The notes under the pieces are model-generated. The model saw only the letters and a program-made list of their open reading frames with translations. It searched no databases and was not told the origin of the DNA. Made by a program: the position numbers and the translations under genes. A stretch of DNA of 64,000 nt, from NCBI RefSeq assembly GCF_056746865.1, contig NZ_CM163382.1; one strand, 5' to 3'. Positions 22,781 through 32,731 of this stretch are shown here, piece after piece (position 1 is the first letter of the stretch; each line of letters starts with the position of its first letter).

Positions 22781-23302
22781 ATGTGGACAGTCAGCCTCGC
22801 TGAGGCGTTTATTCATGTATTCCAGGTCGCAGGCAAAATCTTCCTCGACATGATGACCGGGCTTATCCCGATGCTCATCTGCCTGCTGCTGGCCATCAAC
22901 TTCCTGATGAAGCTGGTTGGTACCGTGCGGATGGAGAAAGTTGCCGCCCTGCTCGGCCGCTCGCGCATTCTCACCTACGGCGTGCTGCCGGTGCTCGGCT
23001 GGTTCTTTATGAGCAGCCCCGGCGCGCTCACTTTAGGCAAACTCCTGCCCGAAAAGAGCAAGCCCGGCTATGAGGATGCGCTCGGCACCCCCGCCCATCC
23101 CCTCACCAGCCTGTTTCCCCACGTAGTGCCATCAGAGCTGTTTGTCTGGCTCGGCGTGGCTGCCGGGGTTAAGGCGCTCGGCCTGCCCGTCACCTCGCTG
23201 GCGCTGCGCTATATCGCCGCCGCCATGCTGATTGGTTTAATCCGCGGGATTATCACCGAGTACCTGTTCCTGCGGCTCAGCAAGCGGGGGAATGCGCCAT
23301 GA
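22781..23302 (+). CDS. PTS glucitol/sorbitol-family EIIC component (SrlA-like)
   Basis: 173 aa; ...GLIPMLICLLLAINFLMKLVG...LFPHVVPSELFVWLGVAAG parallels E. coli SrlA as recalled ([21 protein letters not shown]...LFPHINPGELFVYLGIASG); GGAGGA Shine-Dalgarno upstream. Confidence 0.8.
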   Translation: MWTVSLAEAFIHVFQVAGKIFLDMMTGLIPMLICLLLAINFLMKLVGTVRMEKVAALLGRSRILTYGVLPVLGWFFMSSPGALTLGKLLPEKSKPGYEDALGTPAHPLTSLFPHVVPSELFVWLGVAAGVKALGLPVTSLALRYIAAAMLIGLIRGIITEYLFLRLSKRGNAP

Positions 23303-23364
23303 TGATTTACTGAGCACGTATCGTCGCCATCGGGCTGTTTGTCGCCGATGGTCTCACCGACAAA

Positions 23365-23673
23365 ATGCTTATCACCTTCGACAGCAACGGGCCGAAGGAC
23401 TGTCTCGATTACTCGCTATCGCTGGAGCCGTCGTTCCGGGAAGAGAGCCTGATGATACTCCCCGGCGACCGCCTGCTGCTGGCGGGCCACGATTTTCTGG
23501 TGACTGCCGTCGGCAAAGGGGCACAGCAGGCGCTGTTTGAACTCGGCCACCTGACGCTGGTGTTCAATGGTGACCTGAATCCCTGCCATGTCGGCGCGGT
23601 TCATCTCTCCGGCCCGGTGCCGAACCTGCGCGACCTCCACGGCAATCTGGTGATTGAGGAGGGGCGGCCATGA
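23365..23673 (+). CDS. PTS glucitol/sorbitol-family EIIA component (SrlB-like); coordinates from first downstream ATG, true N-terminus interrupted by in-frame TGA
   Basis: MLITF...LGHLTLVFNG...VHLSGPVP matches the SrlB pattern. An ATG at 23302 overlapping the srlA-like stop gives M-I-Y then TGA (23311..23313), after which the frame continues ARIVAIGLFVADGLTDK-MLITF. Confidence 0.65.
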   Translation: MLITFDSNGPKDCLDYSLSLEPSFREESLMILPGDRLLLAGHDFLVTAVGKGAQQALFELGHLTLVFNGDLNPCHVGAVHLSGPVPNLRDLHGNLVIEEGRP

Positions 23674-30829: not shown

Positions 30830-31051
30830 CTCGATCTCCTGAGCGCGTCTTTATGACAGGGATTCGCACAACAGCAGGTTCTGCTCCGAACACCTTCAGT
30901 ATCCGAACCGGAGATGATTAAAAAAACAGCAACCGACAACGAAAGTTATTTCCGGTTTTCGCTTAAAACCGGAAAATTTATGAGGACAATCACGCCGGAA
31001 ACCGTGAGAAAGGGATAAAAGAGGAAATCGCGTTCGGTGGGAGGCCATCAT

Positions 31052-32731
31052 ATGAGTATCTTCGAGGCGCATTTTCGCAGGCTGCACGCCCGCTACGGCG
31101 CAGGTCAGACGCACGAATTACAGATGCAGGAGATCGCCGCCATCTTCGGCTGTTCAGTGCGTAATTGCCGGATTGCTTTGAAAAAGATGCATCAGGAAAA
31201 ATGGCTCGACTGGCAGCCCCAGCGCGGGCGTGGCAAGCGCTCACGGCTCCACCTGTTAACCTCGCCGGAAAAGCTGTTCAGCCAGAACGTCAATAAGCTA
31301 CTGGAGAAGCAGGATTACGGCAACGTGCTGCGGTTTATCGGCAACGACAAGTATCTGCTGGATCGCCTGAGCCTGTGGCGCTTTGGGGTACAGGATAAAA
31401 GCAGTGAAACGCGGGTGCGCATCCCCTACTATCGCAATCTGGATCCGCTTAACCCGCTCGTCCCCCTGCGGCGGACCGAACGACATCTCCTGCGACAGTG
31501 CCTCAGCGGGCTGACGCGCTATGACGCCGTTCAGGGCAGGATCATCCCCGATATCGCCCACTACTGGACCCACAACGACGACTTTACCCGCTGGGAGTTC
31601 TGGCTGAAATCCACCGCCCGCTTTGCCGATGGCAGCGAACTGAATGCCAGCGCCGTTCAGCGCTGCCTGCTCGCCGCCAGCCAGAGCCCGCAGTTCGCGC
31701 CGCTTTTCAGCCCAATCAAAACCATCACCGCTGACGCCCCCTGGCATCTGGTGATTGAAACGTACCATCCGGTCAGACGGCTCGACTGCCTGCTCGCCAC
31801 TCAGCCGACGATGCTGTTCGATTACCAGCACGGACACATCCGCTGTACCGGCGCTTTCCACCTGCAGGAACACAGTGACAACTTTATGGTTTTGCGGCGC
31901 AATCAACACTGGCACCAGGCGAGGCCCGGACTGGATGAGATCACCATTTTCACCTGGGCTCCGGAGCATATCAGCATGAGCTTTATTCCCCTGCTGCGGG
32001 GCGAAGAGGCGCAGGATGACCGCCCGCTCAACGAGCGTAGTCTGGAGCAGGGCTGCTGTTTTGTGCTGCTCGACGGTGAAGGTGCCTTTGCGGATGAGGC
32101 CGGAAGACGGTTTATCAATTACCTGCTGCAACCTGTCGAACTCCTCAGCCAGACGCAGCTTCCTGACGAATACGCACGCATCCTCTCCGTTGCTCAGGGC
32201 ATGCTGCCGCAGTGGAATCACCGCCCGGTGGATTTCGGCGGGATCACCGCGCCGTTTAACCTGCGTCAGCCGGTTATCATCAGCACCTTTCAGCAGCCGG
32301 AACTGGTGGAGCTTGCCGGAGCGATTCGCATCCTGCTTGAACGCTGGCATATTCGCGCCGAGATACGGATCGACGCATTTGACAGCTTCAACAGCCAGCC
32401 GCGCCCTCCTGCGGATATCTGGCTCAGCAACTTTATGCTCGATACCCTTTCGGTTCCGGCTTTTCTGGAATGGCTGGCTTCCACCACGCTGTTTACGCGA
32501 CTGCCTGAAACCCAGCGACAAAACCTGAACGCCCTGCTGCCGACCATTCTGAACAGCGATAATGAACAGGCGTTCGCAACCATTGCCGCCTTTTTCCATG
32601 AGATGACCCACCAGCGATATGTCATTCCTTTGCTACATCACTGGATGGAATTTGCGACCGAGAAGTCATTTACCTGGCGCGATTTAAATACGCTGGGATG
32701 GCCGGATTTTAGCCAACTTTGGCTCGAATAA
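31052..32731 (+). CDS. SgrR-family transcriptional regulator (N-terminal HTH plus solute-binding-protein family 5 domain)
   Basis: N-terminus MSIFEAHFRRLHARYGAGQTHELQMQEIAAIFGCSVRNCRIALKKMHQEKWLDWQPQRGRGKRSRLHLL parallels SgrR (...WLTWEAEVGRGKRSRLTFL); divergent from the PTS operon; GGGAGG Shine-Dalgarno before ATG 31052. Confidence 0.8.
   Translation: MSIFEAHFRRLHARYGAGQTHELQMQEIAAIFGCSVRNCRIALKKMHQEKWLDWQPQRGRGKRSRLHLLTSPEKLFSQNVNKLLEKQDYGNVLRFIGNDKYLLDRLSLWRFGVQDKSSETRVRIPYYRNLDPLNPLVPLRRTERHLLRQCLSGLTRYDAVQGRIIPDIAHYWTHNDDFTRWEFWLKSTARFADGSELNASAVQRCLLAASQSPQFAPLFSPIKTITADAPWHLVIETYHPVRRLDCLLATQPTMLFDYQHGHIRCTGAFHLQEHSDNFMVLRRNQHWHQARPGLDEITIFTWAPEHISMSFIPLLRGEEAQDDRPLNERSLEQGCCFVLLDGEGAFADEAGRRFINYLLQPVELLSQTQLPDEYARILSVAQGMLPQWNHRPVDFGGITAPFNLRQPVIISTFQQPELVELAGAIRILLERWHIRAEIRIDAFDSFNSQPRPPADIWLSNFMLDTLSVPAFLEWLASTTLFTRLPETQRQNLNALLPTILNSDNEQAFATIAAFFHEMTHQRYVIPLLHHWMEFATEKSFTWRDLNTLGWPDFSQLWLE

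Follow-up and report, generated by a model that had tools for sequence, protein, structure and literature searches.

We analysed a 64,000-nucleotide stretch of the Escherichia coli chromosome (contig NZ_CM163382.1 of assembly GCF_056746865.1), hereafter the window, for the sugar-utilization genes that it carries between positions 22781 and 32731. A preliminary description had presented these genes as one GC-rich module carried as island cargo, and Pfam and NCBIfam searches recovered in place every gene that it had named (Table 1). The limits of the block are gene limits, with the start of an EIIC gene at 22781 and the stop codon of an SgrR-family gene at 32731. Two sets of genes converge inside it. 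Operon A (22781-25674, plus strand) encodes the three proteins of a phosphotransferase system (PTS) of the Gut (glucitol) family and an oxidoreductase of the Gfo/Idh/MocA family. Operon B (27242-30829, minus strand) encodes a glucose-family EIICB transporter, a cupin sugar-phosphate isomerase of the GPI family, a 6-phospho-3-hexuloisomerase (PHI) and HPS, a 3-hexulose-6-phosphate synthase, and is accompanied by a divergent SgrR-family regulator gene (31052-32731, plus strand). We read the block, with a probability of roughly 0.6, as two independent, convergent PTS sugar operons. Together they would constitute the GC-rich, conserved body of an island with integrase, AlpA and DUF927 genes next to ssrA.

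The evidence for independence comes from genomes that carry one operon without the other. Operon A stands without HPS, PHI and GPI genes in our loci L016, L017/L018, L019 and L105. These include a metagenome contig with conjugation genes next to the operon (oxidoreductase 69% identical), an island rich in defence genes (65%), Citrobacter freundii, where gyrA and the ato operon flank it and an RpiR regulator is present (L019, 53%), and Klebsiella quasipneumoniae, where it is accompanied by HTH_3 and HTH_35 genes (L105, CP153194.1, positions 7101-11017, 94%). The Klebsiella copy is cargo of a conjugative element, with TraC_F_IV upstream and fimbrial genes, TraU and TraG_N downstream, and L016 is similar. 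The oxidoreductase gene lies directly 3' of the EIIBC(Gut) gene every time in L016-L019 and L105, and small HTH_3 and HTH_35 genes usually precede the operon. Operon B is present by itself in Trabulsiella odontotermitis. Furthermore, the DNA identity to Citrobacter sedlakii differs between the two halves of the block (90.8% versus 95.6%). Because each operon occurs alone, the halves have diverged differently and the slot between them varies in content, the inference of a single pathway is unsupported. The preliminary description had drawn that inference from the pairing of a polyol PTS with hexulose-6-phosphate enzymes; its view of one module holds for the GC-rich island cargo and fails for the single pathway, the apparent pair being two separable, convergent operons that are found apart elsewhere. 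The partners of the HPS, PHI and GPI enzymes are the SgrR-family regulator and the glucose-type EIICB rather than the polyol PTS.

Table 1. Features of the sugar operons and of the surrounding island, with positions in the window.
Feature	Position	Strand	Evidence or remark
EIIC, Gut (glucitol) family	22781-23302	+	PF03608 201 bits; NF049923 (SrlA) 168 vs cut-off 150
EIIA(Gut)	23299/23320-23673	+	PF03829 68 bits
EIIBC(Gut)	23670-24650	+	PF03612 and PF07663; NF049924 (SrlE) 400.4 vs 400
Gfo/Idh/MocA NAD(P)-dependent oxidoreductase, last gene of operon A	24661-25674	+	PF01408 and PF22725
HPS (HxlA)	27242-27877	-	TIGR03128 260 vs 200
PHI (HxlB type, SIS domain)	27901-28467	-	TIGR03127 208 vs 160
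Cupin GPI-family sugar-phosphate isomerase, 280 aa	28464-29306	-	PF06560 248 bits
Glucose-family EIICB, first gene of operon B	29303-30829	-	PF02378 and PF00367; TIGR02002 656 vs 592
Perfect inverted repeat TTTCCGGTTTT-N5-AAAACCGGAAA	30949-30975		Divergent control region; 11-bp arms
SgrR-family regulator, divergent	31052-32731	+	PF12793 (SgrR_N) 98 bits and PF00496 (SBP_bac_5)
Transfer-messenger RNA (ssrA)	7961-8323		Island start
Tyrosine integrase	8490-9737		Directly downstream of ssrA
PD-T7-5 homologue	10733-11905	-	PADLOC match
Metallo-beta-lactamase (MBL)-fold 'LmuA'-like protein	16825-17811
407-aa protein	17804-19027		No family match
HamB (Hachiman) helicase, split in two open reading frames	19262-20464 and 20503-21786
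CI/capH-like helix-turn-helix protein	21941-22420	-
PD-T4-1 (DUF3883/NOV_C), single-gene phage defence, predicted	25968-27170	+	PADLOC 677 bits, model 4-382 of 383
PD-T7-5 homologue	33844-34866	+	PADLOC match

In composition, the block is foreign both to the AT-rich genes and to its host. Its GC content is 54.8%, or 57.9% without an AT-rich insert, in a backbone of about 49-52% and next to upstream genes of 28-31%, bearing out the GC-richness that had been noticed at first sight. Third codon positions show the same order: their GC content (GC3) is 0.61-0.79 for the module, 0.51-0.57 for the backbone and 0.20-0.31 for the AT-rich genes. Values such as those of the GC-rich frame are within the range of Klebsiella and Citrobacter, the genera that also hold the closest relatives of the oxidoreductase. 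The island as a whole has the features of an ssrA island: an integrase gene adjoining ssrA, a GC mosaic and a presence in about 2.5% of E. coli genomes. Beyond ssrA it includes the integrase, AlpA and a DUF927 protein, whose gene has a GC content of 0.63. Any match to the block was present in 151 of 5,426 complete E. coli genomes. The whole block was carried, at 99% identity or more, by 133, all of them on the chromosome and downstream of ssrA and the integrase; the remaining matches among the 151 were scraps of 50-60 bp. Because only 133 of the 5,426 genomes carry the whole block at such identity, it is an accessory element and seems to have been acquired once, recently, or to belong to one clonal lineage. 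These are not syntenic core genes of close relatives, and the assignment as accessory island cargo stands. Compositionally foreign accessory PTS sugar operons carried as island cargo are an ordinary kind of locus. A search for the far boundary as a direct repeat of the ssrA 3' end (last 25 nt with up to 3 mismatches, or a shared 14-mer) returned none; the right end of the island is degenerate or composite.

The same ten-gene arrangement recurs in C. sedlakii (proteins 93-98% identical, DNA 90.8-95.6%) and in loci where the protein of PDB 3F4W is encoded unchanged, which we refer to as Salmonella-type (DNA 92.7-95.7% identical). Blocks of the collection that hold the exact 3F4W protein, which we take to be from Salmonella, number 47,574. 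In one Salmonella-type locus, an IS26-blaTEM-IS26 arrangement abuts the regulator gene, matching published deletions in monophasic S. Typhimurium. This context, the identity of 3F4W and the papers cited below suggest that the loci with the exact 3F4W protein are Salmonella. In S. Typhimurium, STM2750-52 are listed as a PTS, STM2756 as PHI, STM2757 as GPI and STM2758 as EIICB (PMC3591323, PMC12521295), and these genes are contained in a variable region near fljAB, STM2740-2771 (PMC3591323, PMC12521295, PMC8281233, PMC7767384). Some monophasic epidemic clones of S. Typhimurium have lost the locus through IS26 deletions (PMC8281233, PMC7767384). The locus is therefore already annotated in Salmonella LT2 (STM2750-STM2759), which has the same ten genes in the same order; the loci with the exact 3F4W protein also have PD-T4-1/NOV_C between the operons and DUF927 upstream. 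The E. coli copy differs from the Salmonella version by a nonsense codon in the EIIA gene and the absence of the upstream HTH_35 and HTH_3 genes. The Salmonella-type EIICB gene comprises 513 codons, and about 130 bp separate it from the GPI gene (8442-8572 in L009-L012). In E. coli and C. sedlakii it comprises 508 codons and shares 4 bp with the start of the GPI gene (29303-29306 in the window). All ten genes are under purifying selection, with ratios of nonsynonymous to synonymous divergence (dN/dS) of 0.04-0.23. Their dS from the Salmonella-type copy is 0.11-0.54. Core genes of E. coli and Salmonella have a dS near saturation; values well below that divergence fit lateral exchange among enteric bacteria.

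Within this frame, AT-rich genes occupy slots whose contents change from genus to genus. The predicted PD-T4-1 defence gene (GC 0.37, GC3 0.31) is wedged between the convergent operons and is no part of the sugar genes. Its dS between E. coli and the Salmonella-type copy is only 0.03, compared to 0.26 for the adjoining HPS gene and 0.54 for the oxidoreductase gene, and in C. sedlakii a gene for a HipA_2-like kinase takes its place. The slot before operon A (the AT-rich block 16825-22420, 28-31% GC) holds the split HamB helicase and the MBL protein in E. coli, with no recognisable HamA in the block. In Salmonella-type loci the slot holds DUF4435 and AAA_15/21 ATPase genes, and in C. sedlakii a 518-aa open reading frame (ORF); a 1258-aa ORF is also among the AT-rich slot contents of C. 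sedlakii. In all, three slots are common to E. coli, Salmonella-type loci and C. sedlakii, and the AT-rich genes that fill them differ. Because slot contents vary between genera and the dS of PD-T4-1 is far below that of its neighbours, the sugar genes and the DUF927 gene constitute the island's conserved frame, to which the defence genes were added later and independently. This separate history supports the remark in the preliminary description that the GC-rich module probably came from a different donor than the AT-rich defence genes. The PD-T4-1 insert itself had been overlooked there, as had the EIIA nonsense codon (TGA) and the homology boundary at 22795 that are described below. The two homologues of the single-gene defence system PD-T7-5 that flank the sugar genes have diverged (456 and 339 bits), and neither has a Pfam match.

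Several features were observed further downstream in the window. An AT-rich gene (35197-36294, minus strand, 41% GC) encodes a 365-aa protein with a CBS domain as its sole recognisable feature and no PADLOC match. The coordinate offset from our reference locus, L001, breaks down past about 37 kb; the strain of the window therefore differs from L001 downstream of the island, and rows for ypjA and gab, which are out of register with L001, were left out of the GC comparison. A tRNA gene with anticodon CAT (ARAGORN; 48694-48769, minus strand) lies inside a stretch of 33-39% GC (about 45-52 kb) and may be another insertion hotspot.

Operon A has the three-protein architecture of the Gut family, with all four Pfam models above their gathering scores. 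It resembles the E. coli srlAEBD operon in the succession of a three-protein Gut PTS and a dehydrogenase gene and in matching the SrlA and SrlE models at or just over their cut-offs. By analogy with srlAEB-srlD, operon A would import a polyol or a related sugar as a phosphate ester and then oxidise it, and the product, a keto- or aldo-sugar phosphate, would enter central metabolism. Orthology to srl was not found, however, since the EIIA scores far under the SrlB equivalog (61 versus 165 bits). SrlD is a sorbitol-6-phosphate dehydrogenase of the short-chain dehydrogenase/reductase (SDR) type, whereas the enzyme of operon A belongs to the Gfo/Idh/MocA family. The regulators differ as well (HTH_35/HTH_3 or RpiR for operon A, GutM/SrlR for srl), and operon A, unlike srl, is mobile, residing in an integrative and conjugative element in Klebsiella. 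Because the dehydrogenase is of the Gfo/Idh/MocA rather than the SDR type and the EIIA falls so far under the SrlB equivalog, the substrate is probably not glucitol. The oxidoreductase reached no NCBIfam equivalog (the best was iolG, at 145 versus 355) and had only weak matches among solved structures, to inositol 2-dehydrogenase and DgpA. A Clostridium homologue (48% identical) is preceded by a galactitol-family PTS instead.

The E. coli copy of operon A is damaged. Codon 5 of the EIIA gene (23311-23313) is TGA, where Salmonella-type, Citrobacter and other enteric copies have TGC, and the gene is predicted not to encode an intact phosphate-relaying EIIA unless re-initiation gives a working protein. 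The window shares the TGA codon with the most divergent copy that we checked among complete E. coli genomes and with one metagenome contig that is 100% identical. Among the copies of our set it occurs in the E. coli-type L104 and L024 and not in L002, L009, L011, L027 or L029. In RefSeq the gene is given a non-canonical ATC start at 23320, and the next ATG is at 23365. Homology to other genera begins at 22795, inside the EIIC gene, so that the first few EIIC codons differ, and the native upstream region, with its HTH_35 gene and conserved short leader ORF, has been replaced. Because of the nonsense codon in EIIA and the loss of the HTH_35/leader region, the E. coli version of operon A probably is inactive, or else depends on the SrlB protein of the host.

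Operon B is intact in E. coli. Its HPS is about 95% identical to PDB 3F4W and passes the curated threshold for the family, whereas the models for 3-keto-L-gulonate-6-phosphate decarboxylase (KGPDC) stay under their cut-offs (120 versus 250 and 95 versus 294). The active site points the same way. At KGPDC positions 112, 139 and 169, which we take from work of the Gerlt laboratory to be those that tell the two enzymes apart, the protein has Asp109, Thr136 and Ala (in VAGG). The HPS enzymes 3AJX and 9LJ9 have Asp, Leu/Ile and Ala there and KGPDC has Glu112, Arg139 and Thr169; the engineered KGPDC variants 1XBX and 1XBY have HPS-like residues. By its active-site residues the protein in the window is thus predicted to be of the HPS and not the KGPDC type. 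PHI is a single SIS domain of about 185 aa and matches Bacillus subtilis YckF (PDB 1M3S) with an E value of 2e-40. The EIICB lacks an EIIA domain and is classed as glucose-type by the curated model TIGR02002, while it misses the E. coli PtsG equivalog NF008301 (466 versus 647).

The cupin isomerase belongs to the same Pfam family as the archaeal phosphoglucose isomerases (PGIs) of Pyrococcus furiosus and Thermococcus litoralis (PDB 1X7N, 1J3P) and keeps their four metal ligands, although its 280 aa include N- and C-terminal extensions not found in the archaeal enzymes of about 190 aa. The ligands (H97, H99, E111 and H161) do not vary among 18 diverse sequences. The Salmonella cupin enzyme is reported by Hansen and colleagues (2005) to isomerise glucose 6-phosphate and fructose 6-phosphate in vitro. 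The identities of the archaeal ligands are known to be His, His, Glu and His (PMC6627849), and the family is typically archaeal, with few transfers into bacteria (PMC12525153).

The regulator of operon B scores 237 against a cut-off of 476 for the SgrR equivalog, as expected for a paralogue within the family and not for SgrR itself. As in the SgrR-SgrS system, a regulator with SgrR_N and SBP_bac_5 domains is encoded beside a gene for a PtsG-like transporter. The divergent partner, however, is here the transporter operon, a palindromic site is present, and an Rfam scan of positions 21500-33500 (E up to 0.1) returned no match, neither an SgrS-like small RNA nor a riboswitch. The divergent control region spans 222 bp and is 94% conserved over five genera. 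The arms of its palindrome (30949-30975) are invariant in E. coli, Salmonella-type loci, Citrobacter, Trabulsiella and Entomohabitans, and the palindrome is unique in the window, with 0 occurrences expected by chance. It is a plausible candidate operator for the SgrR-family regulator. Scans of the sequence for promoters and terminators performed no better than on shuffled sequence.

The three enzymes of operon B travel together far beyond the enteric bacteria. HPS- and PHI-family genes come directly after the cupin gene in all eight distant contexts, whether genomes or contigs (two Anaerolineaceae, Pygmaiobacter, Olsenella, Aerococcus tenax, one Bacillota isolate and two metagenome contigs). 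All eight have a sugar uptake system beside the triad. It is either a PTS (Glc-type EIICBA, Bgl/Scr-type EIIBC or Man-type EIIABCD) or a CUT2 ABC transporter, the latter together with a ROK kinase and an RpiR regulator. A metagenome scan with the family alignment added 80 further cupin loci, which were tabulated locally and classed by identity to the best of six GPI probes. Both HPS and PHI were encoded in 9 of 9 enteric-type loci and, in the class of 41-89% identity, which was limited to loci with at least 1.5 kb of downstream sequence, in 15 of 15. The order GPI-HPS-PHI, on the same strand and directly downstream, held in all of these 15 except L054. Among more distant cupin GPIs, both genes accompanied only 2 of 35. 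One subfamily of PF06560 is thus strictly tied to HPS and PHI, and the isomerase-HPS-PHI triad is a conserved cassette across phyla, always next to a sugar uptake system. A minority of loci carry further enzymes beside it: DhaK/DhaL (L006, 13114-14765; L023, 9103-10751; L037/L038), a split transketolase (L007, 6893-8679; L021, 13243-14831; L037/L038) or a class II aldolase, sometimes along with an ADP-PFK-family kinase (L005, L035, L039). The DhaK/DhaL and split transketolase genes, which recur in unrelated bacteria, would fit a recapture of formaldehyde as dihydroxyacetone. Among the uptake partners of the triad, the binding proteins, the ROK kinases and the Olsenella EIIBC all fail to reach a curated equivalog, so that no sugar is assigned from them.

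The gene content of operon B suggests a route by which an imported hexose could reach the pentose-phosphate pool. The E. coli PtsG transporter uses the EIIA of the host, EIIA-Glc (Crr), and by analogy the EIICB and Crr would import a hexose as hexose 6-phosphate. The cupin isomerase would then interconvert the aldose 6-phosphate and the 2-ketose 6-phosphate, PHI would move the carbonyl from C2 to C3 (2-ketose 6-phosphate to 3-hexulose 6-phosphate and back), and HPS would link 3-hexulose 6-phosphate with ribulose 5-phosphate and formaldehyde. The net result, leaving the direction of flux aside, would be a private shunt made of reactions of the ribulose monophosphate (RuMP) pathway, under the control of the SgrR paralogue acting through the palindrome at 30949-30975. 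The closest known arrangements are B. subtilis hxlAB and the archaeal reverse RuMP pathway, which share with operon B adjacent HPS and PHI genes above equivalog thresholds and an HPS-type active site. Operon B differs in that it has no HxlR-type formaldehyde sensor and in that its HPS and PHI genes are embedded among sugar-uptake genes, with a cupin isomerase of their own and a regulator of the sugar type. None of these loci proved to hold an operon of the hxlR-hxlAB type: the adjacent HPS and PHI genes are accompanied by an SgrR-type regulator here, and by one of the RpiR or DeoR type in the distant loci.

Several points weigh against two independent operons, with operon B working as such a shunt. 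Since the operons are adjacent in three genera, they may still be functionally linked. Were the sugar plain glucose, a private PGI would be redundant with the Pgi enzyme of the host, and HPS running towards ribulose 5-phosphate would release toxic formaldehyde. The cupin protein matches the solved archaeal PGIs with an E value of only 4e-10 and is 90 residues longer; because of this remote similarity and the additional residues, its specificity may differ from theirs. In the distant loci, the binding protein matches RbsB best and AlsB next and the ROK kinase matches glucokinase best and allokinase next, all under the cut-offs. Finally, our literature search yielded no functional work on this locus or on the GPI/HPS/PHI triad.

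The specificity of the enzymes is where the first alternative enters, namely that operon B degrades a rare hexose, such as D-allose or a D-allulose-like sugar, with the cupin, PHI-like and HPS-like proteins being paralogues of altered specificity. The E. coli als operon pairs an RpiR-type regulator (AlsR) with a CUT2 transporter (AlsBAC) and a ROK kinase (AlsK), and the operon layout in Bacillota and Chloroflexota (RpiR, CUT2 ABC transporter, isomerase, HPS, PHI, ROK kinase) is als-like. AlsB and allokinase are the second-best NCBIfam matches of its partners, the cupin proteins linked to HPS and PHI form a subfamily of their own, and a dedicated isomerase is sensible only where the Pgi of the host cannot act. 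We nevertheless regard this alternative as unlikely: HPS and PHI exceed the HxlA/HxlB equivalog cut-offs in a distant locus as well as in E. coli, the active-site pattern of HPS is HPS-like, the Salmonella cupin enzyme reportedly acts on glucose 6-phosphate and fructose 6-phosphate, and the EIICB passes a glucose-type model.

A second alternative would have operon B detoxify formaldehyde through the forward RuMP pathway, condensing it with ribulose 5-phosphate to hexulose 6-phosphate and converting the latter to fructose 6-phosphate and glucose 6-phosphate, with the glucose transporter supplying the pentose-phosphate acceptor. All three enzymes are reversible, and the added PGI would complete what textbooks describe as the cyclic oxidative RuMP route. 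We gave this explanation little weight, considering the company that the triad keeps. The regulators are of the sugar type in every locus (SgrR family, RpiR, DeoR) and never HxlR or FrmR, and the triad always lies by a sugar transporter, with a kinase where the transporter is ABC-type. E. coli and Salmonella also already have FrmRAB (PMC4776306), which counts against a second system of this kind.

The weakest of the three, a single pathway in which the Gut PTS delivers a hexitol phosphate that the Gfo/Idh/MocA enzyme oxidises at C3 to 3-hexulose 6-phosphate for conversion by PHI to fructose 6-phosphate, the rest of operon B being accessory, could draw on the adjacency of the operons in E. coli, Salmonella-type loci and C. 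sedlakii, on our own stereochemical reasoning that D-mannitol 1-phosphate or D-altritol 6-phosphate oxidised at C3 would yield D-arabino-3-hexulose 6-phosphate, and on the Clostridium oxidoreductase homologue (48%), which follows a PTS and adjoins a SIS-type isomerase, but we reject it as highly improbable because each operon is found separately (operon B in Trabulsiella; operon A in Klebsiella, C. freundii and three metagenome contexts), the two are convergent with separate regulators (HTH_3/HTH_35 or RpiR versus SgrR-type), differ in their divergence from C. sedlakii and enclose different defence genes in different genera, and the triad occurs without a Gut PTS or a Gfo enzyme in 15 of 15 diverse loci, save for one weak Gfo match.

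We also consider, as a tentative proposal of low probability, that the 270-280-aa cupin isomerase, HPS and PHI constitute an undescribed sugar-catabolic cassette that is widespread across phyla and fed by whichever uptake system the host provides. The cassette would either run the RuMP pathway in reverse (hexose 6-phosphate to ribulose 5-phosphate and formaldehyde, with formaldehyde recaptured via the split transketolase and dihydroxyacetone kinase) or process a rare hexose, and its enterobacterial version would have recruited an SgrR paralogue and a palindromic operator. We found no published description of a phylum-spanning cupin-isomerase/HPS/PHI cassette in sugar-uptake operons.

For E. 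coli, the locus is a minor accessory metabolic trait, consisting of an intact orphan sugar operon and a second one in decay, on an island that varies mainly in phage defence. It illustrates how conserved GC-rich metabolic genes can serve as a fixed frame between which AT-rich defence genes are swapped. Beyond the enteric bacteria, the strict linkage of the triad in Bacillota, Actinomycetota and Chloroflexota as well suggests a hitherto unrecognised role for RuMP enzymes in the ordinary sugar catabolism of gut and environmental anaerobes.

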